DNA of 64,000 nt from a plasmid. The translations under genes and the position numbers were made by a program. The notes beneath the pieces were generated by a model that was given only the letters and a program-made list of their open reading frames with translations, was not told the DNA's origin and made no database searches. The stretch lies in sequence record NZ_CP023526.1. The stretch is one strand, 5' to 3'. Positions 1 through 58,687 of this stretch are shown here, piece after piece; the first letter of the stretch is position 1; each line of letters begins with the position of its first letter.

Positions 1-474
1 CATGCCAACGCCGGCATGTACACCGGTGGCCCCTTCGTCGACACCGACCCCGACACCATCGCGAAGCTCCTCGACCTCAACGTCACCGCCACTTTTCGCT
101 GTATCCGCGCTGTCCTCCCCGCCTTTATCGCCCGACGCGGCGGGGATATCCTCCTCACCAGCTCCGTCGCCGGGGTCGTCCCTGTGGCACACGAGCCCGT
201 CTATACCGCCTCCAAGTTTGCCCTCCAGGGCTTCGTCCACAGCCTCCGCCGGCAGCTCTCTCCCCACGGGGTCCGCGTCGGGGCCATCCTTCCCGGCCCG
301 GTCAGCACCGCCCTGCTCACCGCCTGGCCCGAGGCAAAACGCCGCGAGGCCCTGGAGACCTGCGCCCTCCTGCAGCCCGCTGATGTCGCCGAAGCCGCGC
401 TCTTTATGGTCACCCGGCCCCACGACGTCGTCATCCGGGATCTTGTGATCCTCCCGGCCGGGGTGGATCTCTGA
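1..474 (+). CDS. short-chain dehydrogenase/reductase (SDR), 5'-truncated by the window edge; C-terminal ~158 aa identical to 13797..14267
   Basis: The reading frame is open from base 1. The translation is identical to the C-terminal half of the 285-aa ORF at 13410..14267, including the YTASK active-site region. GC is about 68 %. Confidence 0.8.
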
Positions 475-745
475 CGCCTTCCTGCCCGGACACTCAGACA
501 GCTGCTCTCACGGAGACCTCAACGACGCCGGGAACCCGGCCCCGGCGCCTGAGGACAAGTCCGGAGAGGTGCCCTGTCCGCCAAAAGTCGTGCCCCATGG
601 CGCTTATGGGACTATGACTCACGTCCTTCTACTTTCATCAAAGTGTTGATATTCGTTACTCTTTAGAAAGAGTACCCCCCCTTCTCAATAATCAATGCCG
701 TATGGACTTAACAACGGCCGCTATGAGCGAGGAACGGAAGTTCGT
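1..745. repeat. copy 1 of a >=745-bp direct repeat (copy 2 at 13797..14541); left end cut by the window
   Basis: Bases 1-745 align with 13797-14541 with about 5 mismatches and 1 indel. Identity stops right after the 'aacggaagtt' motif in both copies. Confidence 0.9.
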
Positions 746-1043
746 TTTCAGGTAACATACTCCATATGCAAGAGGTTCTCTAAAAGAGAATGGGGCGTCT
801 AAGCGGGATATTTACCGCTTCGCGGCACTCTTATGCTCGGAGACGCAACCTGTACCACCACTTTCTGATGCCCCCGCGAGGGCATCAGAAAGTTATTATC
901 TGAAAAACACCCGCGCGGTCATCAGGGACAAGCGTTGCAATGGTAGTCTTTCCATTTCAGGAATCAGGGTTTAGGGAGCTGCAGAGCAGCAAACGCCGTT
1001 AAGCGCTCATTTTAAATGGGTATTAAGGAAAAAGAGGTACTTT

Positions 1044-1493
1044 ATGAAGCTTAAACATCTGGGCACATCGGTGCTGCTGGCGGCAATGGTTTGCTGGAGT
1101 AGTTTATCTACAGCAACCAGTGAGCAGGAAGTGAATGCAAGGCTCGATCAACTTTTCAATACACACCAGGAATATCATAATTTTCTCGATAACCTGCAAA
1201 CACAGCTCATCAGCGAAAATAAAGTAGAAGTAGCGAAACTGATTTCTTACCCCATTAAAGTTAATATTGATGGTAAAAAGATTAAAATAAAAACGCCGCA
1301 ACAGCTTATCAAATTATACGGTTCCATTTTTACCCCTGCTCTGGTGAAAGTAGTTAATACCCAGCAGTATAAAGATCTGCTTATCAACGCTCAGGGCGTA
1401 ATGATTGGCAACGGGCAAATATGGTTTTCCTCTGTTTGCGGAGATAATCAGTGTAAAAAATCAACCGTGCTAATTACCACCATCAATAAATAG
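1044..1493 (+). CDS. hypothetical secreted protein (N-terminal signal peptide)
   Basis: 149-aa ORF with an N-terminal hydrophobic segment (LGTSVLLAAMVCWSSLSTA). AGGAA-like RBS upstream. Low GC. Confidence 0.55.
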   Translation: MKLKHLGTSVLLAAMVCWSSLSTATSEQEVNARLDQLFNTHQEYHNFLDNLQTQLISENKVEVAKLISYPIKVNIDGKKIKIKTPQQLIKLYGSIFTPALVKVVNTQQYKDLLINAQGVMIGNGQIWFSSVCGDNQCKKSTVLITTINK

Positions 1494-1962
1494 GGTACTG
1501 TCGTATCAAGACGAGGCCGGGTAATATTCTGCTTTTTTTGATATTACCTGACCCCAACTTTGATCCGGCTCGCCTGCAGAAGCCTGTATGGTCCCTTTTA
1601 TATCAATGAATAATGTATCTACTGGCATCTGGTGTACCTACTCAGCCTGTGTAGTCAGGTCACGGGAATAACCCTCTTATAGTACAATAATCCCCTGTCT
1701 CCAAACTGACCTTAACTAACAGAGAACAGTCCGGCTTCAGCTTCCTGCCATATATCGATCGTAATATTGGCCGGGCGGGTATTCGTGGAACGTAGTCCCG
1801 CTCGAAAACCGTCTGGAATTCCAGATTCGCACTAACATCTCATTTTTGGCATTTATCTACAGGGCCTGCCTGATAATTTGTTTTGTATCAATTATCACCT
1901 GCGTTTTTTTTATTTTACTTCAGTTGTCTCCTTCATTCCTTAAAACCTTAAAAGGATTATTT

Positions 1963-3063
1963 ATGAGAACAATACAGTCACCAGGTAAATATATCCAGGG
2001 GCCAGACGCACTGTCCTCCCTGAACGGCTATATCAAACCATTAGGTTCACGCTGGTTAGTCCTTGCAGATCCGGTGATGCAACAGCATCTGCACCGCTTT
2101 TCTGCTCAGGGTACTGACGAACTGCATTTCCATACAGAGTTATTTAAAGGGGAGTGCTCTCACCAAGAGATTCAGCGTATCTCCGCGCTGGCTGAACGCC
2201 ACCAGTGTGAGGGGATAATTGGTTTTGGCGGTGGAAAAGTCTTCGACACAGCCAAAGCGGTAGCCTTTTACCAGAACCTGCGATCGGTCATGCTGCCGAC
2301 CGTTGCTTCCACTGATGCACCAACGAGTGCTCATTCGGTTATCTACACCGAAGATGGAGAGTTCGACCAGTATCTGTTCTCTCATTCCAACCCGGACATG
2401 GTGGTTGTTGACAGTACCATTATTGCCAATGCCCCGGCTCGCCTGCTGGTGAGCGGTATGGGAGATGCGCTTTCTACCTGGTTCGAAGCGCAGGCGTGTT
2501 ATGAATCCCGTTCCACTAATATGTTTGGTGGGCAAACCACTCGCGCAGCGCTGACACTAGCTCGTTTATGCTATGACACGCTACTGCAGGAAGGCAAAAA
2601 GGCAAAAATATCGGTGGAGCAAAAAGTCTCCTGCCGATCACTGGAACGTATCATTGAAGCCAACACTTATCTCAGTGGCATTGGCTTTGAAAGTAGTGGG
2701 CTTGCTGCAGCACATGCCATCCATAACGGTCTGACCCTGCTTGATGACTGCCGCCGTTTCTTCCACGGAGAAAAAGTGGCATTTGGCACACTGGCACAGC
2801 TGGTGTTGCAGAACAGCAGCAATGCACAGATTGACGAGGTGTTGGATTTCTGTGTCTCCGTTGGTCTGCCAGTATGTCTTGAGCAGCTCGGCGTGACCGA
2901 AGATGTGCAGAAAAAAATGCGCCTCGTGGCAGGCAAAAGCTGCAGCGAGGGAGAAACCATTTTCAATATGCCATTCAGTATCACCACCGAAAACGTATAC
3001 AGTGCCCTGATTATCGCCGACCAACTGGGACGTCAGAAACTGGGCCTGACAGCGCAAAAATAA
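1963..3063 (+). CDS. gldA: glycerol dehydrogenase (NAD-dependent, Fe-ADH family)
   Basis: 367 aa. 'MRTIQSPGKYIQGPDAL...' aligns along its whole length with E. coli GldA / Citrobacter DhaD as I recall them (GGGK, STDAP and AAHAIHNG motifs). RBS AAAGGA lies 8 nt upstream of the ATG at 1963. The ORF-track start at 1846 is probably too far upstream. Confidence 0.9.
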   Translation: MRTIQSPGKYIQGPDALSSLNGYIKPLGSRWLVLADPVMQQHLHRFSAQGTDELHFHTELFKGECSHQEIQRISALAERHQCEGIIGFGGGKVFDTAKAVAFYQNLRSVMLPTVASTDAPTSAHSVIYTEDGEFDQYLFSHSNPDMVVVDSTIIANAPARLLVSGMGDALSTWFEAQACYESRSTNMFGGQTTRAALTLARLCYDTLLQEGKKAKISVEQKVSCRSLERIIEANTYLSGIGFESSGLAAAHAIHNGLTLLDDCRRFFHGEKVAFGTLAQLVLQNSSNAQIDEVLDFCVSVGLPVCLEQLGVTEDVQKKMRLVAGKSCSEGETIFNMPFSITTENVYSALIIADQLGRQKLGLTAQK

Positions 3064-3094
3064 CCTCCTGTTTAGAGAAAACAAAGGTAATGTT

Positions 3095-4744
3095 ATGAGT
3101 CAGTTTTTTATGAATCAGAAGGCAGACCTGGTCAGTGAAGCGCTGGAAGGTATGTTATGCACCTGCCCTTTCAATAATCTGGCAATGCTTGATGCCGGAC
3201 GGGATATCCGCATAGTGGTTCGTCGGGACTGGGATAAGCGCAATGTTGCGATTATTTCCGGCGGAGGCGCAGGCCATGAACCAGCACACGCGGGTTTTGT
3301 CGGCAGAGGTATGCTTACCGCGGCCGTCTGTGGCGACGTTTTTGCCTCGCCAAGTGTTGATGCGGTGCTGAGTGCCATCATTAACGTCACCGGCGATTCG
3401 GGCTGTCTGCTTATCGTCAAAAACTATACCGGCGATCGTCTTAACTTCGGCCTGGCGGCGGAGAAAGCGCGCAAACTTGGCTACCGTGTGGAGCTGGTCA
3501 TGGTGCGTGACGACATTTCCCTACCGGACAATCCACAGCCGCGTGGCGTGGCGGGAACGGCACTGGTGCATAAGATTGCGGGTTTCGTCGCCGAACAGGG
3601 GAAAACGCTTGAAGAGGTCACCGCAGCGGCACAGGATGCGATCACTAAAGTGGCAAGTATCGGCGTAGCCTTCTCCAGCTGTAATATTCCGGGAGAAAAT
3701 CGTGGGGATCGTGTACAGAACGGCACCTGCGAACTGGGCATGGGGATCCACGGTGAACCTGGCGTAGAGACACTGCAATTCCAGTCCGGGGGGGAGCTGG
3801 TCAGCCTGATGGTGGACAAGCTACTGAGTGCAGCTGATAAATGCAGCAGCAAAGCGCTGCTGATAAACAACCTGGGTGGTTTTTCCGCGCTAGAAATGTC
3901 ACTGCTGACGCGCGAAGTGCTTCGTTCATCACTGGCCGGTGACATTGAACTGCTGGCTGGACCGGCAACGGTCGTCAGCGCGCTGGACATGAAAGGCTTT
4001 TCTCTGTCGGTCATTTCACTGACGGATGCCCTGCGCGAAGCACTGCTGGCGCCAGTGGACGTGGCTGGGTGGCCAGCACTGGTCAGGCCCCATAAACCTG
4101 AAAGGGTAGTGGCAGCAAACCGAATTCCGGAACATCGCTTTGTCCCTTCCAGGAATGAGATAACCCAGAGTGTGCTGGCAACGATCTGCAAGACGTTAAT
4201 CAGAGCTGAGTCTGAACTGAATGCACTGGACGTGCTGGTCGGTGATGGTGATACGGGTTCCACCTTCGCGGGTGGAGCCCGACGGATACTGTCAGCCCTG
4301 GAAAGCGGTCTGCTTCCTCTTGATAAACCCGACGATCTGATGATTGCTGTCGGAGAGCATCTGGCCACTGCCATGGGGGGTTCCAGCGGCGTACTGATGT
4401 CTATTATGTTCAACGCCAGTGGGCAAAAAATGGCCGAAGGAAAAACTTTGGGGGAATCAATTAGTTACGGCCTGAGCCGTATGCAGTACTATGGTGGGGC
4501 AAATATTGGTGACCGTACCATGGTTGATGCACTCAGCCCGGCCTTCTCCTGTATCATTCAGGGGGGGCGATTATCTGAGGTCGCCAGAGCAGCGCATACC
4601 GGTGCTGAGAGTACCTGCTCAATGGCTAAAGCTAAAGCCGGGCGGTCATCCTACCTCACCAGCGATAATCTCGATGGTGTGAAGGATCCGGGGGCATATG
4701 CAGTTGAGCTTGTCTTTGCGGAGCTGAATAAAAGACTATCTTGA
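3095..4744 (+). CDS. dhaK: ATP-dependent dihydroxyacetone kinase (single-chain DhaK/DhaL fusion, Citrobacter type)
   Basis: 549 aa. Its N-terminus 'MSQFFMNQKADLVSEALEG...ISGGGAGHEPAHAGFVG' and its C-terminal DhaL-like half match the Citrobacter freundii DHA kinase, from memory. It sits immediately downstream of gldA. Confidence 0.9.
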   Translation: MSQFFMNQKADLVSEALEGMLCTCPFNNLAMLDAGRDIRIVVRRDWDKRNVAIISGGGAGHEPAHAGFVGRGMLTAAVCGDVFASPSVDAVLSAIINVTGDSGCLLIVKNYTGDRLNFGLAAEKARKLGYRVELVMVRDDISLPDNPQPRGVAGTALVHKIAGFVAEQGKTLEEVTAAAQDAITKVASIGVAFSSCNIPGENRGDRVQNGTCELGMGIHGEPGVETLQFQSGGELVSLMVDKLLSAADKCSSKALLINNLGGFSALEMSLLTREVLRSSLAGDIELLAGPATVVSALDMKGFSLSVISLTDALREALLAPVDVAGWPALVRPHKPERVVAANRIPEHRFVPSRNEITQSVLATICKTLIRAESELNALDVLVGDGDTGSTFAGGARRILSALESGLLPLDKPDDLMIAVGEHLATAMGGSSGVLMSIMFNASGQKMAEGKTLGESISYGLSRMQYYGGANIGDRTMVDALSPAFSCIIQGGRLSEVARAAHTGAESTCSMAKAKAGRSSYLTSDNLDGVKDPGAYAVELVFAELNKRLS

Positions 4745-4951
4745 ATATGGTCAGTAAATTCAGTGCGTTACTAGTTTCAGGTGGCTGTAAAAAGCACTCG
4801 CTCAGACCTAAGCTGGCAGTTACGGGGTTTGAGGGCCAATGAAACGAAAACGCACGTTTATAATGTAATGCATTGTTAGTATTAGATTTTTATTTCCTTA
4901 TGCTCAGTGGGACGAAAACTCACGCTAAGGGATTCTGATGATGTAATTATT

Positions 4952-4981
4952 AAAAAGGATCCACATGGGATCCTTTTTTCG
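4952..4981. terminator. rho-independent terminator, bidirectional (GGATCC stem flanked by an A-run and a T-run)
   Basis: aaaaaGGATCCacatGGGATCCtttttt lies 210 nt downstream of the dhaK stop. Confidence 0.7.
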
Positions 4982-5704
4982 CTGTGATTTTGCAGCTTGA
5001 CTCCTACAGGGCCTTGTAACTGATACCGAATTCCCCGCCACACCGCTAAATATGCGAAGCAATACCTGCTCTGTAGTGCTTCAGGTGTTACAATCAGTGC
5101 ACAAGGGCTCTGATATGCTGTTACCGACATTATTACATTCATCTCAGAGCGCAAGAGTCGCTGCCTGCCCGGAGGTAATTGTGCCAACTGGGCAATTTCT
5201 TCAGACCTTACTTAATATTTGGCATCGAGATATTTATTAAATTTCTAATAGGTACACACTGGTTAGAGGCACTAAAGCACAATGCTGTCGATTATTGCAT
5301 TGATAAATAGCATCAATCCTCTCTTAGCGCTACCAGACCATAAGTCGCAAACAAACACTGCAGTCGGAATGGGTAAAGTGAAGCTGCGGTCAAGGTGCAT
5401 CCCTATGTTCGTGGGCTGTAAAGCCCGCTAACAACTCCGTTATAGATATCGAAGTATTTTTTGAGAAGTTTCTCATGATATATTAATTTAAAGTTGGGGA
5501 TGTATGAATGCCTATAACTCAAGCGTACAGCCAGGATATCAGAAAGAATATTAGTATTTACTTACTGAAAACACTGATGTAGGTGAGTGAGAAATAGTAA
5601 TGTCATATTTTTCTTTATGCGAAAAACATTCAACGGATCCGCCAATGTATTAACATGACCGTTTTATTCAATGGGGCACAGATCAATGAGCCTACAATGT
5701 TTGA

Positions 5705-6397
5705 TTGTATCATTTACCAATGGTTGAGGAGGCTTCATATGAAAAAAACTCTATTTTCCAATTGGGTGAATATTGTTACTCCAGTAAAAAAGTGTTGATA
5801 GCGAGCATTCAAAATTATCTTGCCAGGACTAATGATGGAGAGGTAAGCCATCCTGAAACTATTCAAAAGCTGCATTACCTTTTGTTAATGCACCCTAAGG
5901 CAAAGTATAAAATAGGCGCAGGCGTCAAAAAATTTTTAGTAACATCTAATGAATTGGGGTCAGGTAAGGGTTTTGAAATATTACGATATGACAATACGAA
6001 GGAACGTTTTTCATACAAAACTTGTATCAATGGTCAAAAACAGACTCAACGCTCAAAGTCCGTTGAGGCCCTTCGTTTTTCTATTAGACAACAAATGATT
6101 GATTTTAGAAAAAGTTTAAAGTTGCCTTTAAACTGTGCAATATCTGGTTTGCCTATACATCATCATGATGAAATCCATATCGATCATCGCATTCCATTTT
6201 GGGAGCTGGTTTTAAATTTTCTTCATGAATATAATTACTCATTAATTCAGTTAGAAACTTGTGGTTCTGGTGAATATTTAAAACTCATTGATGAAAACAT
6301 AATCAAGGAGTTTTATTATTATCATAAAAAAACAGCCATACTTCAACCAACATTAATAAAATATAATATTGAAAAAAGTGGCAGAGCATCATATTGA
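5705..6397 (+). CDS. orphan HNH / His-Me-finger-like nuclease domain protein
   Basis: 230-aa low-GC (~32 %) ORF. The 'HHHDEIHIDHRIPF' motif resembles the HNH H-x-D-H-I-x-P core. No flanking ATPase or methylase gene. Confidence 0.4.
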   Translation: MYHLPMVEEASYEKNSIFQLGEYCYSSKKVLIASIQNYLARTNDGEVSHPETIQKLHYLLLMHPKAKYKIGAGVKKFLVTSNELGSGKGFEILRYDNTKERFSYKTCINGQKQTQRSKSVEALRFSIRQQMIDFRKSLKLPLNCAISGLPIHHHDEIHIDHRIPFWELVLNFLHEYNYSLIQLETCGSGEYLKLIDENIIKEFYYYHKKTAILQPTLIKYNIEKSGRASY

Positions 6398-6697
6398 TAA
6401 TTTGGCCAGCAGGGGTATTTGAACACCTGTCTACGTTGTTGAGCGGCTTGCAGAGATCGAGCAGGAACGGCAAAGAGCCGCGCTATCAGGCAAAATAATA
6501 CACTGAGCATGATAGTTCCGGGTGGTGTGCCAGATTCTGAATTTTGGTCAACTCATTCTCCCTATTTTCCATCTTATGATAAAACGGAGCTGCAGGTGGG
6601 TGATTTTTTGCTGCGGTAAGGCAGGGACGAATATTCAGCGGTAAGTTTGCAACCGGAGTGTGATACACGACCCGCAAAATGACAGGGAAATACAGGT

Positions 6698-6991
6698 ATG
6701 GACATGAATGAATGCAGAAAGAGTGTGCAGGCCATTGACGAACAGATGTTGTATCTGGCCTCCCATGGTGTGAGAAGGCCAGTGGATATCCTGGAGCATA
6801 TGGCCGGGCAGATGCCGGTATTGCATCGCATCTGGACAGAAGTCTCTGACGGGCAACTGTCGGAACTGGCCGCTGAGTTTCCGGGGTTTCGTGCCCTTGC
6901 GGTGATGACGGAGGCCGCCTGGCTGGCAGTGCAGAGCAAAACTTCCCGGTCATACGATGACATGCCGGTGTTCAGCGACCGCTACAGATAA
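6698..6991 (+). CDS. hypothetical protein (IncF backbone, upstream of finO)
   Basis: 97-aa ORF with ordinary codon usage, directly followed by the next ORF at 6995. Confidence 0.5.
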   Translation: MDMNECRKSVQAIDEQMLYLASHGVRRPVDILEHMAGQMPVLHRIWTEVSDGQLSELAAEFPGFRALAVMTEAAWLAVQSKTSRSYDDMPVFSDRYR

Positions 6992-6994
6992 TGG

Positions 6995-7255
6995 GTGAAC
7001 AGTACACTCACGCGGGGGGCGGAGCTGGAGCAGGACTGGCAGCGCTGTCGGAAAAGCGGCGATGTCGACGGGACCCCTGAGCTGCTGCAGTTGTGCCGGG
7101 CCTGGAAACAGGATGTGCAGGATTTGCTGGCCACGCTGAAGGCCGATGCGCAGATTTTACCGTCACAGCGGGCCTGTGTCGCGGCAGTTCTGCTCCCCAT
7201 GATAGACCGCATCGTCAGCCCGTCTGCGCTGCAGAACGAAAGGAGTCAGAAATGA
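6995..7255 (+). CDS. hypothetical protein (IncF backbone, upstream of finO)
   Basis: 86-aa ORF. Its stop overlaps the start of the finO remnant. Confidence 0.5.
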   Translation: MNSTLTRGAELEQDWQRCRKSGDVDGTPELLQLCRAWKQDVQDLLATLKADAQILPSQRACVAAVLLPMIDRIVSPSALQNERSQK

Positions 7256-7680
7256 GCCATGACCGCCCGGTTCTGTCCCTGAAGCGAAAAACCGTGACGC
7301 CGGAGACCGGCGATACTTCGTCAGTAATGCCTACCCGCCGCACGGTGATACTGGCTGCCGGGCCGGAGGCAGCGTATCTCCGGTATCCGCGCCAGCCAGT
7401 CCCGGGTGTCCACATGGTCGCCCTCCCCGGCTGATGTCGGCAGAGCAGGCCGTCAGCCTCTTCAGTCAGACCTGGTCGGCGTTGTTTGAGGGGCAGCAAC
7501 TGCGCCCAATGAAGAAAGGTATCCGGGAAGATATCTTTGCCGATATCGCGGCCCGTCCGTGTCCCGAAAAAAGGTACGGCGTGGCTGGCTGAGTCTCACC
7601 CGCAGCGAAACGTACGTGGCAGTACGGGTTTCCGTCAGCCCCGCTTTGGGCCTGACGGGCAATCCGTTGGCGTAGTGACA
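7252..7680 (+). pseudogene. finO: finO (fertility inhibition, ProQ/FinO RNA chaperone) disrupted by at least two frameshifts
   Basis: 'MSHDRPVLSLKRKTVTPETGD' (7252..) matches the F-plasmid FinO N-terminus 'RPVLTLKRKTEGETP'. 'WSALFEGQQLRPMKKGIREDIFADIAARPCP' (7434.., +1 frame) matches '[31 protein letters not shown]'. 'LTRSETY' (7590.., another frame) matches 'ITRSESY'. Confidence 0.75.
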
Positions 7681-7790
7681 AAAATGAAGCCGGGTTCAGC
7701 CAGCAACAAGTGAGGAAAGTGGGAGCCTGAGTGCGGGGTTATCTGTCGCCAGAGACCAGGTTACAGCCTTGAGGGAAACACCCATCATGG

Positions 7791-9095
7791 CTAATCAGGC
7801 AATCTGGACAAGCGTTGTCGTTTATTACAGGCTTTCCAGAGCCAGCTTTCCATGATGTAAACAATACAGGCGACGGCAATCGAGTTTATGGCAGGCACTC
7901 CCCGGGTATATTCGAGGCCTACAACACAACCCGCCAGACTTGCGATAATGGCCATCCAGCCTGTGTCCGGGGTGAAATCAGGCAGGGTGTTACGGGTATT
8001 GCTTTCGCGAAGCGTTTCCCGGTGTGTTTTCAGGACGTAGTAATCCATTAACATCACCCCAATAACGGGCGGAAATATAACCCCCAGCAGTGTCAGAAAA
8101 TCCACGAACATATCCAGAATACCCAGGACGGACAGCGTGGTTCCCAGTATTCCTATGACTATCGTGGTGGGTGTATATCGCAGTCTGATACCGGTGAGTC
8201 CCTCAACCACATTGGCAATGCCCAGCGTCGAAGAATAGAGATTGATATCATTGATACGTAAGGTTGAAAACACCACAATCAGGAGCCCGATATTACCGGC
8301 CCCCTGTGACATAATGGCCACAATGTCGGAAGTGCCTGACACGCGTGATATCAGAATAGCGAGCCCGTTGACAACGACTTCACCGGAAACAACCGTTAAC
8401 AGGGTAATACCGAATACCTGGCGCGAATTTCTGGAATACCGTGTTAAGTCCGGGGTGATCAGGCTGGCGACAATGGCTCCACCAACAACAATAGTAGTAC
8501 CGGCACTAATGGATAACCGATGCCCGGTGGGCGGCATCAACAGGATTTCTGTAATCGTATGGTCTTTTAAGGTGTGGTATGAAATAAAGGCAATCAACGA
8601 AACAAAAAGCGGAACCGCAATCCGCGCCGCAATTTTCAGTGCCCGAAAGCCAAAAGCCACCAGAAAAGTCAGAAACAGGCCTGATGCCGAGGCAGCAAGG
8701 GGAAAACCCGGACGACCATGCAGGGCCGCATTCAACGAGCGGGCAAAAATCGCGTTCTGAACGCCAAACCATCCGAGAAGGCTCACCGCAACCACCAGAC
8801 CGATGAGCACAGAACCGTTGCGCCCGAAGCCGCACCAGCGTGCCAGCAGACTGCCGGAAATCCCCTCCCGCATCCCCGCCAGACCCAGCCCCCAGGTGAC
8901 GAGCCCGAATAATAGTCCTCCTGCAGCAATCGCTACCAACGCTGCCGACAGCGTCATCGAATTACCCAGCACGGCCCCCATCATGAACTGGTCCAGTGCG
9001 GTTATCATTCCCATATGAACGATGGCAACGCTCAGAAAAGACGCTTTTCTGTCCGCTGGTACCCGGCTCAGGGGAAAATCATCAAATTTTAACAT
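7791..9095 (-). CDS. NCS1-family nucleobase permease (cytosine/purine/uracil/allantoin type, CodB-like)
   Basis: 434 aa with about 12 predicted TM segments. Overall resemblance to E. coli CodB. Confidence 0.7.
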   Translation of the reverse strand: MLKFDDFPLSRVPADRKASFLSVAIVHMGMITALDQFMMGAVLGNSMTLSAALVAIAAGGLLFGLVTWGLGLAGMREGISGSLLARWCGFGRNGSVLIGLVVAVSLLGWFGVQNAIFARSLNAALHGRPGFPLAASASGLFLTFLVAFGFRALKIAARIAVPLFVSLIAFISYHTLKDHTITEILLMPPTGHRLSISAGTTIVVGGAIVASLITPDLTRYSRNSRQVFGITLLTVVSGEVVVNGLAILISRVSGTSDIVAIMSQGAGNIGLLIVVFSTLRINDINLYSSTLGIANVVEGLTGIRLRYTPTTIVIGILGTTLSVLGILDMFVDFLTLLGVIFPPVIGVMLMDYYVLKTHRETLRESNTRNTLPDFTPDTGWMAIIASLAGCVVGLEYTRGVPAINSIAVACIVYIMESWLWKACNKRQRLSRLPD

Positions 9096-9112
9096 TGGAA
9101 AAACACCTTATA

Positions 9113-9808
9113 TTAAATGAACACAATGCTTTTATTCAGAAGACTTGGGGGGATATAACTGTTCAGAGCTGTATGGCGGCAGTATTCAACAAATTGTTCA
9201 CGGGAATGCACATCAGCTTTGTAATATATTTCCTGCACCCTGTTACCGATTGTCCGGGCACTCAGGTTATAAACTCTGGCAATTTCTTTAATGGAGAATC
9301 GCTGGAGTAACAAAAAAATAATATCGTGTTCCGCTGCGGTGAAATTGCCCTGGCCGGTAACCTCAGTTGTCAGAATGCCTGGTTTAGTTTTGGAGATAAA
9401 ACTCAGCGGGGAGAGAGAGGTCAGCGGTTTTGCATTCCACACAATGCACACCAGCTCGCCTGTCGCGCTAAATACAGGCGTTTTTTCACTAATGAACGGT
9501 AACAGATGGCCCTGCCCGTACCAGTAATCGGTTTCAATTACCGTCACTTTTTTCCGCGATAGCCCGGTCACGCGGTCATGCTCGATTAAGTCAGCAGACA
9601 ACTCAGCCCAGCAGGCCGGAAACTCCGCATCATACTTTCCTTCAAAGTCAAAATTTGACGGTGTCAGCGTATAGCTCAGGGCTGCAGCATTCATGTAAAG
9701 ATGACGTGAATCCGGGAGTTTGAGCCCCCAGGGTTCATCCAGATGTTCCAGCATGCTGACTAAAAGAGAAATATCCGAACCAGAGTCAGAAGGCAGAACC
9801 TTACTCAT
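9113..9808 (-). CDS. LuxR/GerE-family transcriptional regulator
   Basis: The C-terminus 'EHDIIFLLLQRFSIKEIARVYNLSARTIGNRVQEIYYKADVHSREQ' is a typical LuxR-type HTH. The N-terminal ~150 aa is an unknown sensor domain. Confidence 0.7.
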   Translation of the reverse strand: MSKVLPSDSGSDISLLVSMLEHLDEPWGLKLPDSRHLYMNAAALSYTLTPSNFDFEGKYDAEFPACWAELSADLIEHDRVTGLSRKKVTVIETDYWYGQGHLLPFISEKTPVFSATGELVCIVWNAKPLTSLSPLSFISKTKPGILTTEVTGQGNFTAAEHDIIFLLLQRFSIKEIARVYNLSARTIGNRVQEIYYKADVHSREQFVEYCRHTALNSYIPPSLLNKSIVFI

Positions 9809-9825
9809 TTCGCACAGACCACCGG

Positions 9826-10233
9826 CTACAGTTCTTTGGACAGGTAATGCCGGCTGAACTTTCTGGCATAACCATCCAGTTTGCCGTATTCACGGTAACC
9901 CAACTTCTCGTAAAACCCGCGAGCCTGGAAACTGAAGGTGTCCACGTAAGTCATGTGGCATCCCCGCTTCCGGGCTTCCATTTCCGCCCTTAACATAAGG
10001 GCCCTGCCGTATCCCTTCCGGCGTTCTTCTTCTGCTACCCAGAGATACTGTATTTCCAGCGCTCCCCACCACGTCTGGGCGACCAGTCCCCCTGAAAGCA
10101 TATCGCCATTATAAATGGACAACATGAAAGGACGTATATCCACCGGAGCCCAGGCTTCATTATGTGTCCAGAGGTTATCGATGATGAGGTGCTTCGTTTT
10201 TTCATCAGGACGATCGCTAAAATGAATATTCAT
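9826..10233 (-). CDS. GNAT-family N-acetyltransferase
   Basis: 135 aa. '...EERRKGYGRALM...' carries the acetyl-CoA binding motif A (R/Q-x-x-G-x-G/A). Confidence 0.75.
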   Translation of the reverse strand: MNIHFSDRPDEKTKHLIIDNLWTHNEAWAPVDIRPFMLSIYNGDMLSGGLVAQTWWGALEIQYLWVAEEERRKGYGRALMLRAEMEARKRGCHMTYVDTFSFQARGFYEKLGYREYGKLDGYARKFSRHYLSKEL

Positions 10234-11186
10234 AAAAATTCCCTGTTAAAGGCGGATTTACAGAAGCTATTAGGTGACAAAAATCTCAAAACAACCAACC
10301 CCATGCCTTTTTTTGGCAGAATATTCAGAACATTCTCTAACTAGTGATTTAGCTGAACTAAACAGTGGTGCAGTATCAGAAATGGGATTTAGAATATGCT
10401 GGATAAAAGCAGGCTGACAGTAACCTGGCTCATATCCCGCTACTAATCTTGTCTGCGTATTGCGCCATCCCTCCCTGTCACCAGTCGAATCTGTCTTTCA
10501 GAGCTATTTTAGCTCTGGCCCAGCATTTTCATCAGCGTACCTTAAAAGCAAAGCACCGAGATAATTTAGAAACTTTTTTGGCATTATTCAGAAACGGAAG
10601 CGAATATCACTGCAAAAAAGGTTTTTTCTCTAAAATAATCAGCCTGGAAACACCTTATTTGCTTTTACTAATACCTCCTCAATTTCTGGTCGCAACGCCA
10701 GGAGATATGGCCTGGATGGGGGTGAAATCCGGTGATATGACCGAGGCGACGGCACGAGGGTGAGCGCTGAGGGCGAGAACAACGTCCAGACCCGCCAGGG
10801 TGCCAGGGCCTTCCTGCTAGGGCATAATCAGATGGATAGCGGAAAAGACCGAAATTTCCAGCCGTTCGTGAAAGTCAACTGGCTGCATAACACGAAGCGT
10901 AATGGCGTGGTGATGAATGGCGTATCGCTGGAGCAGGCCGGGGCTGTCAATGTCGGGGAAGTAAAACTCGGTGCAGAAGGCCAGTTGATCCGCCAGACAG
11001 CGCTGTGGGGAAACGTGAGGCAGTAACTGGGAGACAGAGTACAGCAACACGGCGGCCATGGTGGGCATTAAGTACTCATTTTAATCAACCACAGAAATCA
11101 TCCGATCGGCCCTGTGCACTCCGCAGGGCCAACTGGAGCGTTGAACCCGATGTTCTGGTCATTTTTCGAACTAACGCTCAAAACAG

Positions 11187-11840
11187 GTGATGCAAACAAT
11201 CAACAGAGGGGCGCAGATAGGTATGAAAAAGAAGCGGCAGCTATCCCGAATTCAGAAAAAAATTCTGCCTTTGATTCTAAAAACTGAGTCCTTTTCTTCA
11301 GACCCTATGTCCTTACGAAACATCGGACGAACGGTTGGGGAAGTCAATATACATTATTCCTGTCATTCGCTGGAAAGCCTGGGGCTTATCAGTCTTCAGC
11401 GATCCCGGACTCGCCAGCTGTTTCTTAAACTGACTGATGCAGGGAGGACGGTGGCGGCACGGTTACAGGAAGAGGCATATACGGCGGAAAAGGAACGACG
11501 TCAACAAGAGGAATGCCGGGTTCTGCCATTTCGTCCTCCCGGAAGAGAGACACTGGATATTGAGGTGTATATCAGAGGGAGACCATACACTGCTAATCGA
11601 GCAACGTTCATTATTCGAGTGGACGGATCCGTTAGCCTCGCTCTGTCGAGTAAAAACAGCGGTCAGGCCTGGCTGAATGGTGATGCTGTGCAAGTGGCTG
11701 AGTGGTATCAGATCTGCTATGACGCCGGGTTATCGGTGAATGTGCAGGTTAATGATAGCTTATGGTCTCCGGCGGCCCCCGCCTTGGCCTCAATGACCAG
11801 CCAGCCAGTCGGTGCGGTGACGGAGAGTGAAACTGGGTAG
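11187..11840 (+). CDS. hypothetical protein with a predicted N-terminal winged-helix DNA-binding region
   Basis: 217 aa. 'LSRIQKKILPLILKTESFSSDPMSLRNIGRTVGE...LFLKLTDAGRTVA' looks like a MarR/wHTH fold. It is followed by a TCCGAT repeat array. Confidence 0.45.
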   Translation: MMQTINRGAQIGMKKKRQLSRIQKKILPLILKTESFSSDPMSLRNIGRTVGEVNIHYSCHSLESLGLISLQRSRTRQLFLKLTDAGRTVAARLQEEAYTAEKERRQQEECRVLPFRPPGRETLDIEVYIRGRPYTANRATFIIRVDGSVSLALSSKNSGQAWLNGDAVQVAEWYQICYDAGLSVNVQVNDSLWSPAAPALASMTSQPVGAVTESETG

Positions 11841-11874
11841 CGCGGGGTTATCTGTCGGCCAGTGCCTGCGACTG

Positions 11875-12000
11875 CATATTCCGACCCAAACCGATCATTG
11901 ATTCCGATGCAGTCCGATCGCACTTTCCGATTTAATTCGACCACGGATTCTGATTTGCTCCGGCCAGATTTAGTCATCTGTCGGAATCCATGATTTAATT
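11875..12000. promoter_or_regulatory. array of direct and one inverted TCCGAT / ATTCCGA(C/T) motifs
   Basis: attCCGAC, gatTCCGAT, agTCCGAT, ttTCCGAT, gatTCTGAT and inverted GTCGGAAT lie within about 125 bp between two convergent/divergent genes. Confidence 0.4.
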
Positions 12001-12046
12001 TCTGACGCATGCCAGCAGCCGTGCCCTGCCTGCGGTCTCGCTCAAG

Positions 12047-12505
12047 TTAGAGGGCAATATCGGGGGCCCCACTCCGGATGAAGCAGTTTTCGGCCCCCCA
12101 GTCGGGCCAGTGCAAGCGCCACCAGATCGCAGAATGCCAGATGATGCGCAGGATTATTGCCCGATTGTCATTGAATTTCTTCAGGCGAGTCTCAACAATC
12201 GCCTGCATCATATAAATACCGGGATTCTGGTTGAGTGTGCGGTTCCACAGGGAACGATGAGGAAGTGGAAAACACCGTGTGATTCGCTGCACCTTTCTGC
12301 ACAGGCGCGCACCAGGACATAAGCATTTCTCGTGTTGATAGACTCGCCGTTTGCACATTGCCTTACGAGCCTCGTTTAGGCTGTCTGTATCCATCCATTT
12401 AGCAATTCGGTTGTGGTAGTCATTATGGAACAGCGGCTTATCATTGGTAAATTTGGCATTTGTCGTAAGGTGAAGATAATCCAGGCTTGAACATTCCTTC
12501 TCCAT
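12047..12505 (-). CDS. hypothetical basic Cys-rich protein
   Basis: 152 aa, co-directional with and 43 bp downstream of the XRE regulator gene. No recognisable motif. Confidence 0.45.
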   Translation of the reverse strand: MEKECSSLDYLHLTTNAKFTNDKPLFHNDYHNRIAKWMDTDSLNEARKAMCKRRVYQHEKCLCPGARLCRKVQRITRCFPLPHRSLWNRTLNQNPGIYMMQAIVETRLKKFNDNRAIILRIIWHSAIWWRLHWPDWGAENCFIRSGAPDIAL

Positions 12506-12548
12506 GCCACAGTTTCTACCACTATACTCTGCTCTGGATTAACTCGAG

Positions 12549-13040
12549 CTAATCCCCCAGCCCTTTCTCATCAAGAAGGTACTCCCTACGAATGGCTCTT
12601 TGTTTATCCACTGATAACTTATTCAGTTCCAAGGCAAGCTCGATAACCGGCACAGGTAAAGACATCACCTCGCGCCCATCAGAGCCCCTTGCATTTTCAA
12701 CCTGCTGCAGCAATGCATTTAACATTTGTTTGATAACGATACTTCGCTGGGCGTCCGACAAAAACTCGGCCAGAGTCATCATTAACTGCAGGTCTCTTTT
12801 TATACAGCACTCATCATCAGTCTGACTTACATCTTCCCCTAACAGCCAGGCTGAGCTTAGGCCCGTTGCCCGGGCTATTTTTTGTACCTGCTCAATGCCA
12901 TTAGGCACAGAGTCACCCGCAACATAGCCCCGAATAGTGGAATAAGGGATATCACATTTCTGCGCTAAATCGCGCATGGAATCCCCTGTCATAGTGAGCA
13001 GCTCGGCAAGTCTGACACTAAAATTGCTCTTAATCATCAC
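12549..13040 (-). CDS. XRE-family helix-turn-helix transcriptional regulator
   Basis: 'VRLAELLTMTGDSMRDLAQKCDIPYSTIRGYVAG' is a Cro/C1-type HTH. A C-terminal ~90-aa extension follows. Confidence 0.7.
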   Translation of the reverse strand: MMIKSNFSVRLAELLTMTGDSMRDLAQKCDIPYSTIRGYVAGDSVPNGIEQVQKIARATGLSSAWLLGEDVSQTDDECCIKRDLQLMMTLAEFLSDAQRSIVIKQMLNALLQQVENARGSDGREVMSLPVPVIELALELNKLSVDKQRAIRREYLLDEKGLGD

Positions 13041-13409
13041 ACACCAGGCATGTAACCATATGAATAGAATAGCAATTGCAGAGATTATCTAAAATTAGTT
13101 ATTTTATGCCTTTATTTCTCTAATTTTAGATATACCCTGTTTGTATAAATTGCAGACAGTTTCCCTTTGCAGATTCAAACACTGCGCATCGCACAGCCCG
13201 GGCGAAATTGCCATGCACGCGTACGTGCCATCAAAGGCAACGTCCAGGCACTGTGTAGCCTGACCGAACCCCGGCTTCACGCAAGTCCGGCCTTCGAATT
13301 TCAGACACACCACATCGTATACCCGCCAGCCCTGTTTCATCCGGCAGGGGCTCCTGCGCGCGCTGGCATTCTACCATGTCCGACATGAGACGAAGGAGAG
13401 ACAAGCCAC

Positions 13410-14267
13410 ATGACTCACACCGACGGGCACCAGCCTGACATCTGGCCCGCATACGTTCTGCCCCGGGGCGGCACACCCGTCCCGCCTGGTCCTCACCCCC
13501 ACATCAGGAGATACCCTGTGAACACCCCCCTTTCTGTACCCCGTCACCCGCTTCAGGGCAAAGTCATCGCCATCACCGGGGCCGCCTCCGGGATCGGCCT
13601 CGCCTGTGCCTCCGCCTTTCTTGCCGCCGGGGCCCGTGTTGTCATGATTGACCGCGACGTCGGAGCCCTCCTCCACCACGCAGATACCCTCGGAGAGCAC
13701 GCCCTGCCCCTGCCGGCCGACATCACCGACCCCGACCAGGCCGACGGTCTCGCTGACCACATCCTCTCCCTCGCCGGACGCCTCGATATCTTCCATGCCA
13801 ACGCCGGCATGTACACCGGCGGCCCCTTCGTCGACACCGACCCCGACACCATCGCGAAGCTCCTCGACCTCAACGTCACCGCCACTTTTCGCTGTATCCG
13901 CGCTGTCCTCCCCGCCTTTATCGCCCGACGCGGCGGGGATATCCTCCTCACCAGCTCCGTCGCCGGGGTCGTCCCTGTGGCACACGAGCCCGTCTATACC
14001 GCCTCCAAGTTTGCCCTCCAGGGCTTCGTCCACAGCCTCCGCCGGCAGCTCTCTCCCCACGGGGTCCGCGTCGGGGCCATCCTTCCCGGCCCGGTCAGCA
14101 CCGCCCTGCTCACCGCCTGGCCCGAGGCAAAACGCCGCGAGGCCCTGGAGACCTGCGCCCTCCTGCAGCCCGCTGATGTCGCCGAAGCCGCGCTCTTTAT
14201 GGTCACCCGGCCCCACGACGTCGTCATCCGGGATCTTGTGATCCTCCCGGCCGGGGTGGATCTCTGA
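13410..14267 (+). CDS. short-chain dehydrogenase/reductase (SDR) family oxidoreductase; start uncertain (possibly GTG 13518)
   Basis: It has the Rossmann motif 'ITGAASGIGLA' and the catalytic 'YTASKFAL'. GC is about 68 %, atypical for the rest of the window. Confidence 0.85.
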   Translation: MTHTDGHQPDIWPAYVLPRGGTPVPPGPHPHIRRYPVNTPLSVPRHPLQGKVIAITGAASGIGLACASAFLAAGARVVMIDRDVGALLHHADTLGEHALPLPADITDPDQADGLADHILSLAGRLDIFHANAGMYTGGPFVDTDPDTIAKLLDLNVTATFRCIRAVLPAFIARRGGDILLTSSVAGVVPVAHEPVYTASKFALQGFVHSLRRQLSPHGVRVGAILPGPVSTALLTAWPEAKRREALETCALLQPADVAEAALFMVTRPHDVVIRDLVILPAGVDL

Positions 14268-14541
14268 CGCCTTCCTGCCCGGATACTCAGACAGCTGTTC
14301 TCACGGAGACCTCAACGACGCCGGGAACCCGGCCCCGGCGCCTGAGGACAAGTCCGGAGAGGTGCCCTGTCCGCCAAAAGTCGTGCCCCATGGCGCTTAT
14401 GGGACTATGACTCACGTCCTTCTACTTTCATCAAAGTGTTGATATTCGTTACTCTTTAGAAAGAGTCCCCCCCTTCTCAATAATCAATGCCGTATGGACT
14501 TAACAACGGCCGCTATGAGCGAGAAACGGAAGTTAACATGT
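13797..14541. repeat. copy 2 of the >=745-bp direct repeat (copy 1 at 1..745)
   Basis: See copy 1. Identity ends at 14541. Confidence 0.9.
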
Positions 14542-14778
14542 CTATTAAAGTGGTTAAATTTAGTAATCCACTATAAGGCTTTTTTAGATCTTTTGTGATG
14601 AAACGCTGAGTTTAGACAGAGATAGCTGCATAACTTCGAGTATTATCAATAGTTAGATTGATGTGAAGAGATTAAGGTCACATACTTTTTTCTAGTTCTA
14701 TAAGTAAATTATTCTAAAAACCTAACTGGATGAAAGTTTAAAGCACCTTTTCAAAATTTTTAACGAAAGGACAAATCT

Positions 14779-16644
14779 ATGGCAAACTCAACGAATCAGG
14801 GAAGAAAAAGTAAGAGCCCGCTTGACGATAAAACTACTATTGATGATTTACACAGCATCCCCCTTGCATCGTTGTTAGACGGTTATGAAGAACTGTGTGG
14901 TTTAAATATGTGGCTTGAACTAAGCAAATTAGCATCTACAGCTTTAAACCGCGATGACCACTCTGCTCACAGAGCATATAAACTCTTAGCGACGCTATGT
15001 TCAATGCGAATGTCATCTGACGATCCGGCCGATACTTGGCATCCAAGATGGCAAGATGCAGAAAATAAAATGCTCACGCCTCAAGATATAAAAAGTGATT
15101 ATAACTCACTGCTTTCAGATATTGTTAATTTTATTAATAACTTGGCATTGAAAGGCCGAATTGCAGATATCGTATGGTCAAATGACCGTAAAGAATACAA
15201 GTGTGGCATCGAAGCGGTCAAAGCATATTCTAATATAGTCCTTGAGCATATAAGCAAAAAATGCGATACCGATAATTTCACAAAGTTATTTGAGTTGATG
15301 AATTTATTACAGAGAGCCTTGTGCATAAATGGGACGATGGGTAAGCGCGACCATATTCCAAGTTATCTAGCAAAAGCTTTTGAACAATTTTATATCTTCT
15401 CTTATCAAAAATGTATATATGTAGCATTTTCTAGGATTGGAGAGTTAGCTATAGGTTATAAAATAAAAACATGGCAAGAAGTAGCTGATGATTCAGAAAA
15501 TCTTGTTAACAGGGGAAGTATAAATGATTATCCAGAAGCTCGGAAGAAAGTGTGGGCACTTGCAGCACAATGTCATCTGAAAAATAAAAACACTGAAGGT
15601 CGCAGGCACTGTTTAGAGGAGTATTCAAATGAAACTCTAAGAATGTGTGAACAAGTTTCAAGCTATGCTGCGAAAGCTTCTTGGGTACGACAGGCTATAA
15701 CAGAACTTCAAATAGCGGGTGGGTTTCAGGATAAAATTGATATTCTTCGAGTTAAATTAAGGGACTTACAACTTGCCAGCCTCTCTGAGATGTTTCAATA
15801 TGACATGCCTTGCGATCTATCAGAAGAATACAATGAAACAATTAATCAGTTCACAAACATTTTCCTCCCCGAAATACTGTATTGCTTTGCAATATTATCT
15901 AAATCACCAACTATTGAAAGCTTAAAAGAAGAAATTTTAAACAACAATAGTAGTGGAATATCCTTTTTATTCCCCACTTCAATATATCTTGACCAAGAAG
16001 GCAAACCTGTAGCTAAAACATGCAGTCACTCTTCAGAGCAAGAACCTAAAAATGAGTGGCTGAAATCGAACTCTATTATACATATGAGCAGCCTTAGGTA
16101 TTTTATTGTTGAATCAAGAATTAAACCAGCCCGACATGCTACGATGCTGCAATACGCGGTTGAGCTAAGACATTTCGATGTTATTGTGAGTTTAAGTAGC
16201 TTTGTTCCTTTTGGCCATGAACATCTCTTCAGTTTAGGTTTTTCCCGTTTATTCCAAGGTGATTTGGCATCAGCAGCATATATACTAATTCCTCAGCTTG
16301 AGAATACATTACGCCATGTTTTATTCTGTAGTGGAAGAGATTCATTCAAATTTTCGGATGGCGGTCTTCAGGAGGATCGTTCTTTGTCGGGGCTATTGGA
16401 AAATAAACGTAGTGATTTATTAGAAATATTTGGTGAGGATATAGTTCATGAGATTGATATGCTTTTCCATTATAAAGCAGGCCCTTCGCTAAGGCATAAA
16501 GTTGCACATGGAAAATTGTCGGCTGGAGACTGTTATCAGCCAGATTGTATCTACGCTTGTTGGTTTATTTATAGACTCATTTGTTTACCTATTCTTCATT
16601 GCTGGAAAGACCAAGTAATACCGCAAATTGAGATGACGCTTTAA
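14779..16644 (+). CDS. large hypothetical protein with a C-terminal Rx4HG (HEPN-like) motif; candidate abortive-infection/RNase protein
   Basis: 621 aa, about 35 % GC. RBS AAAGGA 7 nt upstream. '...GPSLRHKVAHGKLS' near the C-terminus fits the HEPN R-x4-6-H signature. Confidence 0.8.
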   Translation: MANSTNQGRKSKSPLDDKTTIDDLHSIPLASLLDGYEELCGLNMWLELSKLASTALNRDDHSAHRAYKLLATLCSMRMSSDDPADTWHPRWQDAENKMLTPQDIKSDYNSLLSDIVNFINNLALKGRIADIVWSNDRKEYKCGIEAVKAYSNIVLEHISKKCDTDNFTKLFELMNLLQRALCINGTMGKRDHIPSYLAKAFEQFYIFSYQKCIYVAFSRIGELAIGYKIKTWQEVADDSENLVNRGSINDYPEARKKVWALAAQCHLKNKNTEGRRHCLEEYSNETLRMCEQVSSYAAKASWVRQAITELQIAGGFQDKIDILRVKLRDLQLASLSEMFQYDMPCDLSEEYNETINQFTNIFLPEILYCFAILSKSPTIESLKEEILNNNSSGISFLFPTSIYLDQEGKPVAKTCSHSSEQEPKNEWLKSNSIIHMSSLRYFIVESRIKPARHATMLQYAVELRHFDVIVSLSSFVPFGHEHLFSLGFSRLFQGDLASAAYILIPQLENTLRHVLFCSGRDSFKFSDGGLQEDRSLSGLLENKRSDLLEIFGEDIVHEIDMLFHYKAGPSLRHKVAHGKLSAGDCYQPDCIYACWFIYRLICLPILHCWKDQVIPQIEMTL

Positions 16645-21999: not shown

Positions 22000-22463
22000 A
22001 ATGATTTGAATCCTAACGTCCTGTAAATGGTAACGATATCCACTTCGGCGAACAAAATCGCCAGGCGGCTAGCAGCGGTTAAATGCACCGGATTAGCACC
22101 GCCTGTATCGACGGCGCGCAGAGATTTGACGGAAAGACTGTCAGTGATTTCGATACTTTCTGCCGTCTGGAGAAAAAGCAACGAGGCATGTGTGAGGGAT
22201 TTATTTTGCTGCACCAGGTGCGTCAAACCCAGCAGTCGCGACTGCTGGGAGCACATTGTTCTCAGACTGCTGGATCCCTTAGCATGAATCAGAAAAGTCT
22301 GCATAGGAGGAGACAGCAGCATTGGGAGTACGAGATAACTCAGCAGCAGGTCTCGCTCACGTGAGGCATATTTTTCATAAAATTGGTGAAGACAGGGTGC
22401 AAGCAAAATAGGGGATCGCTGAAGCGTAAAGAGATGATTGATGGCCTTCGGTTTCATTCCCAC
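21996..22463 (-). CDS. small middle component (LmuC/DdmB-like) of the three-gene ATPase operon
   Basis: 155-aa ORF. Its stop overlaps the ATPase start (ATGA), and its start overlaps the upstream gene's stop. Confidence 0.6.
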   Translation of the reverse strand: MGMKPKAINHLFTLQRSPILLAPCLHQFYEKYASRERDLLLSYLVLPMLLSPPMQTFLIHAKGSSSLRTMCSQQSRLLGLTHLVQQNKSLTHASLLFLQTAESIEITDSLSVKSLRAVDTGGANPVHLTAASRLAILFAEVDIVTIYRTLGFKSL

Positions 22464-29681: not shown

Positions 29682-29768
29682 ATGAAAATACTCGCCATCA
29701 TTTTTTTCACCATCACCCTTTTGCTGTTTGCAGCATTGATGCTGGCGTTTGCTCGTCGGGCACGTTAG
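29682..29768 (+). CDS. 28-aa hydrophobic mini-protein (single TM, basic C-terminal tail)
   Basis: MKILAIIFFTITLLLFAALMLAFARRAR. A GGAG RBS lies 8 nt upstream. Confidence 0.4.
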   Translation: MKILAIIFFTITLLLFAALMLAFARRAR

Positions 29769-34892: not shown

Positions 34893-34901
34893 GATTAAGA
34901 G

Positions 34902-38580: not shown

Positions 38581-38603
38581 CAAACAGAATCGGGATAATG
38601 TAA

Positions 38604-58661: not shown

Positions 58662-58687
58662 GGCGTACTTCTGGAAGGTTGAAACAA

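Follow-up and report, generated by a model that had tools for sequence, protein, structure and literature searches.

A 64,000-nucleotide (nt) stretch of a plasmid of Cedecea neteri (record NZ_CP023526.1; here called the window) contains two nearly identical direct repeats that appear to bracket a block of accessory genes of about 13 kb. Our analysis indicates that this apparent bracket belongs to a family of three copies on a plasmid-type replicon, of which it forms one pair. The repeat is the arm that bears a short-chain dehydrogenase (SDR) gene in a larger module, in which an XRE repressor gene lies divergent to a Ner-like gene and an RbtD-like SDR gene; the module is present three times in direct orientation. 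We consider it probable that gene conversion among old paralogous modules explains the near identity of the copies. Through non-reciprocal homologous recombination of the RecA type, the modules would have written over each other's SDR arms, and this process would hold 0.9 to 1.4 kb at about 99% identity. The edges of the pair within the window would then represent the limits of ancestral homology between modules rather than the ends of a mobile element, while the third copy may have arrived, or become trapped, within a 7.3-kb insertion that is flanked by a second direct repeat of 760 bp. Homogenization of this sort is well known and is met here in a new setting; it leaves the understanding of bacterial recombination unchanged.

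Extent, copy number, and reality of the repeat

The copies are named A (at the window start), B (near 13 to 14 kb), and 0 (upstream of the window). A repeat finder and pairwise alignment confirmed the near-identical direct repeat that had been noticed in a sequence-only reading of the window. Positions 1 to 742 match 13794 to 14534 at about 99.3% identity, with 4 mismatches (copy-A positions 27, 491, 505, and 732) and one 1-nt indel (674), and identity ceases sharply past 742/14534. The earlier count of about 5 mismatches and 1 indel was essentially right, whereas the second interval, given as 13797 to 14541, was off by 3 to 7 nt. The content had also been described correctly as the 3' part of a GC-rich SDR gene plus some 270 bp downstream: window 1 to 474 is the 3' 63% of the gene and is followed by 268 nt. 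A repeat of this length and similarity cannot have originated by chance in 64 kb.

As had been supposed, the first copy runs off the window. Upstream DNA from C. neteri contig UAVU01000009.1 (721,732 bp; assembly GCA_900461005.1) was joined to the window and the product was compared with itself by BLAST; negative coordinates denote positions upstream of the window start in this source contig. Another 649 nt of copy A were found there. The full A/B repeat measures 1,392 bp (window -649 to 742 versus 13143 to 14534; 99.1% identity, 10 mismatches, and 2 gaps), and its two copies lie in direct orientation, 13,793 bp apart from start to start. It holds the whole SDR gene of 249 amino acids (aa), preceded by 375 bp and followed by 267 bp. 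The sequence-only reading had named, as an outcome that would speak against its own view, a first copy that is simply a full second SDR gene within a longer duplication of different extent, and upstream inspection bore this out in part, since copy A does contain a second, complete SDR gene and the repeat does have a different extent. The self-comparison also revealed copy 0, a third copy of 904 bp (window -7601 to -6698) that is 99.0% identical to both A and B and is located 7.3 kb further upstream than copy A, all three being direct and within about 22 kb. In a three-way alignment every copy has sharp edges, and private variants are scattered in a star-like manner. The GC content of the repeat block is 68%, compared with 35 to 52% for its surroundings. 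Features in and around the repeat are listed in Table 1.

Table 1. Coordinates of the repeat copies and of associated features in the window
Feature	Position	Strand	Remarks
Copy A, right-hand 742 nt	1..742	+	99.1-99.3% to 13143-14534; full copy -649..742 extends beyond window start
SDR gene of copy A, 3' 474 nt	1..474	+	Full gene -275..474 (L004 17261-18010), 249 aa, GTG start
3' flank, non-coding, common to A and B	475..742	+	Copy 0 matches first 88 nt only, to 562
Conserved ~100-nt non-coding element across right boundary of copy A	710..816	+	
Intervening unique segment, 12.4 kb	743..13142		
XRE-family (HTH_3) regulator, type B	12549..13040	-	Outside repeat; divergent from SDR operon
AT-rich divergent-promoter spacer, 28% GC, unique to locus B	13041..13142		
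Copy B, complete, 1,392 bp	13143..14534	+	Self-BLAST, three-way alignment
Ner/Nlp-like gene (Pfam HTH_35), remnant	13410..13517	+	Comparison with intact 99-aa HTH_35 genes of Cedecea sp. NFIX57
SDR gene of copy B, 750 nt, 249 aa, RbtD (ribitol 2-dehydrogenase)-like	13518..14267	+	Pfam adh_short E=1.4e-53
Start of locus-B cargo: AT-rich spacer and PDC-S39 candidate defense gene (14779-16644)	14535..16644	+	Lamassu further on

Three C. neteri assemblies, all of which appear to represent the same type strain, were compared. Three copies are present in each of the two long-contig assemblies (NCTC, SQC92063/92081/92090; and ATF95476/95484/95499, on a 254,496-bp record annotated as a plasmid), and the copy-A variant R10 recurs in the second of these. 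The short-read assembly of NBRC 105707 (= ATCC 33855) has an 855-bp contig with 99.65 to 99.77% identity to all three copies. It stops exactly at the point where copy 0 departs from A and B, and because of this coincidence we regard it as the collapsed repeat. Moreover, each copy has unique flanks that are conserved in relatives. The existence, extent, and reality of the copies are thus directly observed, and an assembly artefact in the form of a collapse, a mis-join, or a duplicated consensus, as the sequence-only reading had envisaged, is extremely unlikely, even though the first copy abuts the window edge and one of the two indels is suspect. This indel, a 1-nt gap in a C/G run at window -332 (L004 ~17205) of the NCTC copy A, shifts the upstream open reading frame (ORF) and is probably a long-read homopolymer error, since ATF95484 (285 aa) reads through. 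The breakage of short-read assemblies of C. neteri at this site would be a consequence of a three-copy family homogenized by gene conversion.

Probable concerted evolution of the SDR arms

The relative JGI 3300073499, represented by one 369-kb contig, has both an A locus and a B locus, separated by about 46 kb (A' in locus L077 and B' in locus L072), and its repeat of 1,391 bp (98.1% identical) has both boundaries as in C. neteri. L077 aligns to window -6672 to 753 at 96.5%, and L072 is syntenic with window 7355 to 14523 at 90 to 93%. In an alignment of the four sequences, the paralogues (A/B, 99.3%; A'/B', 97.7%) are closer than the orthologues (A/A', 96.7%; B/B', 96.3%). Thirty-eight variable columns group by genome (A=B versus A'=B'), none groups by locus, and none is crossed; at every by-genome column within its range, copy 0 carries the variant typical of C. 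neteri. The orthology of the loci and this grouping of variants by genome are, like the copies themselves, plain observations. Because A and B differ less than A and A', sequence would have been copied between the loci after the lineages split. A duplication before the split would by itself make the A/B difference at least as large as the A/A' difference, and is therefore rejected as the sole explanation. Judged from these patterns, the SDR arms appear to undergo concerted evolution by gene conversion, and it is in this form that the earlier claim of recombination between the repeats finds support.

A comparison of two JGI genomes may point in the same direction. JGI 3300066812 is 99.94 to 99.97% identical to 3300073499 over 28.5 kb, and the 13 differences are all inside the repeat. 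Each of them falls at a paralogue-variable site where the second strain carries the base of the other copy, which is suggestive of fresh conversion tracts; if genuine, these tracts would measure at least 157 bp and at least 341 bp.

Old modules with locus-specific regulators

Every repeat copy is preceded by a divergent XRE-family (HTH_3) gene of 162 to 165 aa. Regulator B is 95.7% identical at the amino acid level to its L072 orthologue but only 31% identical to the type-A regulator upstream of copy A, and the type-0 regulator has no kinship to A or B beyond the helix-turn-helix (HTH). Across genomes the regulators are 95.7 to 99% identical, as against 31% between loci. More distant orthologues are found in Cedecea sp. 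NFIX57, in L073 for type A (73%) and in L074 for type 0 (81.5%). Given these very different repressor genes, the three modules would be old paralogues. Cedecea sp. NFIX57 has two complete three-gene modules, composed of XRE (-), a 99-aa Ner/Nlp-like HTH_35 gene (+), and SDR (+), both of which stand at the edge of integrative elements. The SDR genes of its type-A and type-0 modules are only 81.5% identical at the nucleotide level, as against 99.5% for the three in C. neteri.

The suggestion that one recent duplication or insertion event brackets the 13 kb is not borne out, because the loci are old and carry different regulators (31% identical), and both loci and their boundaries recur in the relative. 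We also consider it improbable that an SDR block of 0.9 to 1.4 kb was recently spread to three places by illegitimate recombination or an unrecognized mobile mechanism. Such duplicative spread would account for the abrupt edges and for copy 0, which has no detectable diverged homology in its flanks and resides in an insertion of 7,336 bp that the relative lacks and that has a 760-bp repeat on either side; the foreign composition of the block (68% GC; fraction of C at third codon positions [C3], 0.66) would also suit horizontal acquisition. However, the orthologous type-A and type-0 modules of NFIX57 already have their own SDR genes, as does the JGI relative at the A and B loci. The A/B loci and their boundaries are older than the split, yet the paralogues are closer than the orthologues, and terminal repeats, target duplications, and a transposase are all lacking.

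The last point was assessed in several ways. The best end-to-end local score for terminal inverted repeats, 5 to 6, was below the mean of 6.9 for random sequence; the 15-mers on either flank show no relation to each other, arguing against a target-site duplication; and no inverted repeats of at least 40 nt were returned by a repeat-finder search. No transposase gene is present in or beside the repeat, which encodes only the SDR gene and the Ner-like remnant. Hence, although the two direct repeats around accessory genes resemble those of composite transposons, the lack of terminal inverted repeats, target duplications, and transposase sets them apart, and a transposon, composite or otherwise, is ruled out. 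Likewise, integration at a tRNA or attachment (att) site is rejected, as the 41 kb surrounding the copies contain no tRNA gene. Rfam searches (gathering scores; E<=1 on window 400 to 1100) returned nothing in or beside the repeat.

Edges of the repeat and variable cargo

The left A/B edge lies inside the AT-rich divergent-promoter spacer, within a small imperfect hairpin (13137 to 13159 at locus B) that spans the boundary. Past this edge, loci A and B still show homology but have diverged strongly, which fits a place where conversion lacks usable homology. The right edge (~731 to 742) is the end of homology for four loci, with four unrelated continuations. In C. neteri, copy A is followed by a 149-aa ORF, gldA, and dak, and copy B by PDC-S39 and Lamassu, while in the relative locus A (L077) continues with Gabija, an insertion sequence (IS), and a SIR2-domain protein, and locus B (L072) with an HNH nuclease and a C5 methylase. 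The repeats mark a site where antiphage cargo varies among close relatives.

Several points weigh against gene conversion between ancestral modules as the full explanation. No conversion event was seen directly, conversion being deduced from sequence patterns. Just beyond its edges copy 0 has no recognizable diverged homology, for which illegitimate joining or later deletions may account. The right edge is common to four loci and leads into unrelated DNA at each, which could mean a site-specific process. Finally, all 13 differences between the JGI genomes might stem from the collapse of variant bubbles in the short-read assembly 3300066812 (contigs of 42 to 45 kb, ending at IS), and because this could yield the same result we rate that comparison as suggestive only.

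A site-specific process would make the right module end (~720 to 742) a recombination or insertion hotspot and the repeats landing pads for cargo blocks. In keeping with this, the four loci combine a common end of homology with four unrelated cargos, a short palindrome (AACG-N6-CGTT) spans the junction, and the copy-A junction falls inside a conserved non-coding element of about 100 nt that in E. coli islands is also found beside IS remnants and Gabija-like genes. Yet an adjacent integrase or recombinase gene is absent, the palindrome is short enough to be due to chance, and ordinary homologous exchange between related plasmids or integrative and conjugative elements also gives variable cargo beside conserved genes. 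A hotspot also leaves the 99% identity over 1.4 kb unexplained, and we think it unlikely as an alternative to gene conversion.

Up to 111 E. coli genomes, 109 of them on the chromosome, have a single-copy sequence without annotation that is 80 to 94% identical to the ~100-nt element; there it is found downstream of ypjA and beside IS630/IS1182 remnants, Gabija-like genes, or helicase genes. Copy B retains the element only up to 14534, and a diverged version follows the copy B of the relative (L072). The element has no Rfam match. Conceivably, although we are doubtful, the XRE/Ner-like/SDR module, ~100-nt element included, is the conserved anchor of a hotspot for cargo in the plasmids and integrative elements of Cedecea. 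The cargo types that follow the module across loci comprise Lamassu with PDC-S39, Gabija with SIR2, a restriction-modification pair, SoFic, and metabolic genes. If true, converted anchors would let neighboring blocks swap, vanish, or amplify by homologous recombination, in effect a recombinase-free cassette system.

The defense cargo after copy B comprises the PDC-S39 candidate (DUF7380/DUF4209; + strand) and the genes LmuB, LmuC, and LmuA (~19987 to 23728; - strand). Between them lies a full-length match to the Hfq-binding island small RNA isrN (19021 to 19163, + strand; 145.6 bits), which is the only Rfam match in the window.

Upstream insertion and predicted instability

The segment of 7,336 bp that carries copy 0 is absent from the JGI relative and is bounded by the second direct repeat, of 760 bp and 99.6% identity (window -14008 to -13250 and -6672 to -5913; L004 3528-4286 and 10864-11623). 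Its genes are QueC-like, Vut_1, HTH_26, another SDR, the type-0 XRE regulator, and SDR copy 0. The pattern would be that of an insertion or of unequal exchange via the 760-bp repeat. The latter carries a 190-aa gene without Pfam match that has a 52%-identical paralogue at window 11187 to 11840.

The copies are direct and of sufficient length for RecA-type recombination, and they predict structural instability: the dha/permease block (13.8 kb), or the 7.3-kb or 21-kb interval, could be lost or amplified. Excision or amplification of the 13.8-kb A-B interval is plausible as a prediction from general knowledge; no deleted, circular, or tandemly amplified forms were found in the three assemblies, which apparently are of one type strain. 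Here, as for the recombination machinery and the direction and number of conversion events, we infer what may happen between the copies, deletion and amplification included, from their arrangement and sequence.

The SDR gene, the Ner-like remnant, and C-ending codons

The SDR gene of copy B has a GTG start preceded by an AGGAGA motif, and its translation contains the cofactor motif TGAASGIG as well as the catalytic SSVAG and YTASK. The three C. neteri copies are 99.5% identical at the nucleotide level, and the protein from copy A differs from those of copies B and 0 in a single residue (R10 versus H10). The SDR is 59 to 62% identical to the rbtD products of Klebsiella, Providencia, and Pantoea, and relatives at 70% identity or more are, among named sources, from Cedecea only. 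By its domain and motifs the protein is an RbtD-like short-chain dehydrogenase with putative ribitol dehydrogenase activity. In PADLOC the SDR had no match, and regulator B had no more than a weak CapH-like (XRE) one.

In C. neteri the Ner-like gene is reduced to a remnant in which the N-terminal MTHTDGHQPD abuts IWPAY, in frame with the SDR gene, and the same reduction is seen in the close relative. The direct joining of the two peptides indicates that the HTH core was deleted, and the in-frame fusion of the remnant to the SDR gene accounts for the 285-aa ORF. A tblastn search of C. neteri with the NFIX57 proteins did not retrieve a Ner-like gene that is intact; what remains of its N and C termini can be seen by eye only. 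No relatives of the gene were found on viral contigs.

The third codon positions of the SDR gene (window 13518 to 14267 and the other copies) are 66% C and 17% G, with CTC used for 22 of 32 Leu, GCC for 30 of 38 Ala, GTC for 18 of 24 Val, CCC for 13 of 18 Pro, and ACC for 14 of 15 Thr. Across the SDR copies and L073 8001-8738, C3 is 0.66 to 0.71 and the corresponding value for G is 0.16 to 0.17. The + strand is also C-rich in the Ner-like gene and the non-coding flanks. In the Pantoea rbtD homologue, by comparison, third positions are 34% C and 34% G; codon usage is also unlike that of the Providencia homologue, and all other genes measured in the window have 12 to 34% C at third positions. 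Many private substitutions fit C-to-T changes, most clearly in copy B' of the relative, so that the bias appears to be inherited and decaying rather than ongoing. The C-ending bias and the common right boundary with differing cargo, mostly defense genes, are two unexplained curiosities of the system. A long antisense ORF (13371 to 14216, - strand) was judged not to be a gene: its codons coincide exactly in register with those of the SDR gene and its product is rich in G/V/D/A/E, so that we take it for a by-product of NNC codon usage.

Comparison with known systems

A close parallel is the symbiotic plasmid of Rhizobium etli, for which Romero and co-workers reportedly demonstrated amplification, deletion, and conversion of the reiterated nifH genes and their "amplicons" experimentally in the 1990s. 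Directly oriented nifH copies delimit stretches of DNA that RecA-dependent recombination can delete or amplify. As in R. etli, three copies of one gene lie on a large plasmid and would be kept nearly identical through conversion. In contrast, conversion in Cedecea is seen by its sequence signature only, the gene is an SDR gene, and a different, diverged regulator accompanies every copy. Paralogues at dispersed sites are also known to evolve in concert in the case of tufA/tufB of Salmonella, and in bacteria concerted evolution has been described for the rRNA operons as well (review, PMC6002687). The Cedecea paralogues are similarly closer within a genome than the orthologues are between genomes, with orthologous flanks. 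However, whereas rRNA and tuf genes belong to the essential, highly expressed core, the SDR gene is accessory, lies on a mobile replicon, and has tracts bounded by non-homologous cargo.

The SDR shares with RbtD of the rbtR-rbtD-rbtK operon (Klebsiella, Providencia, and Pantoea) its 249-aa family and intact cofactor and catalytic motifs. Unlike in that operon, no FGGY kinase (ribulokinase) or LacI-type repressor is encoded beside the Cedecea SDR copies, which instead lie under a putative XRE/Ner-type switch, occur in multiple copies, and show extreme use of C-ending codons. Divergent repressor/Ner (or CI/Cro) switches operate in phage Mu and other mobile elements. The NFIX57 module is reminiscent of these, its XRE gene being divergent from an operon that opens with a small Ner/Nlp-like HTH gene. 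Here, though, the "early operon" is a dehydrogenase, the Ner-like gene is a remnant in C. neteri and its close relative, and the switch is a putative one.

The intervening segment and the replicon

The unique segment between copies A and B begins with the 149-aa ORF, gldA, an ATP-type dihydroxyacetone kinase gene, a DUF3223/HamC-like ORF, and small ORFs, continues with an NCS1 permease gene, a LuxR-like regulator, and GNAT, and ends with an autotransporter remnant, ORFs of 216 and 152 aa, and XRE regulator B. Among the genes that the sequence-only reading had named, gldA/dak (1846 to 4744), the NCS1 permease (7791 to 9095), and the regulators were recovered, but not finO, as the ORFs scanned between the copies gave no FinO/ProQ-type match. 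Window 743 to 7354 had no counterpart in the loci fetched. The DUF3223/HamC-like ORF (5705 to 6397, + strand; PADLOC HamC, E=5e-16) is an orphan in a 33% GC patch with no Hachiman partners nearby. The autotransporter pseudogene (10449 to 11026) retains the beta-domain tail only, with 2.3 kb lost at 10708 relative to the intact 896-aa gene of L072 (4976 to 7666). A 120-nt sequence at 11872 to 11994 shares 88 to 92% identity both with sequence just upstream of IS21-family istA in E. coli and with stretches that are unannotated or adjacent to traQ on plasmids of Klebsiella and Pantoea; it probably represents an orphan end of IS21 type.

A megablast search with window 1 to 16000 returned short or weak matches only and no known plasmid or E. 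coli source. They were to the dha genes (81%, on an Enterobacter plasmid), to the 120-nt IS21-end-like sequence, and to a 51-nt island element. The C. neteri plasmid is absent from PLSDB, and nothing relevant to the repeat region was found in the literature on C. neteri plasmids.

The repeats lie in a large plasmid or in a region derived from one. In one C. neteri assembly the replicon is annotated as a 254-kb plasmid, as opposed to the 722-kb NCTC contig. The window contains a Rep3-type initiator gene (38540 to 39616) followed by about seven 72-bp tandem repeats (39889 to 40391), which are probable iterons, as well as a ParA/ParB pair (33693 to 35873) and HipA. An inverted pair of 89-nt repeats (29680 to 29768 and 54268 to 54356; 76% complementary) is located around the replication/partition region, 24.5 kb apart. 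Further on, at 57879 to 62099 (+ strand), lies a polyhydroxyalkanoate set consisting of an acetoacetyl-CoA reductase-like SDR, a thiolase, and PhaC.

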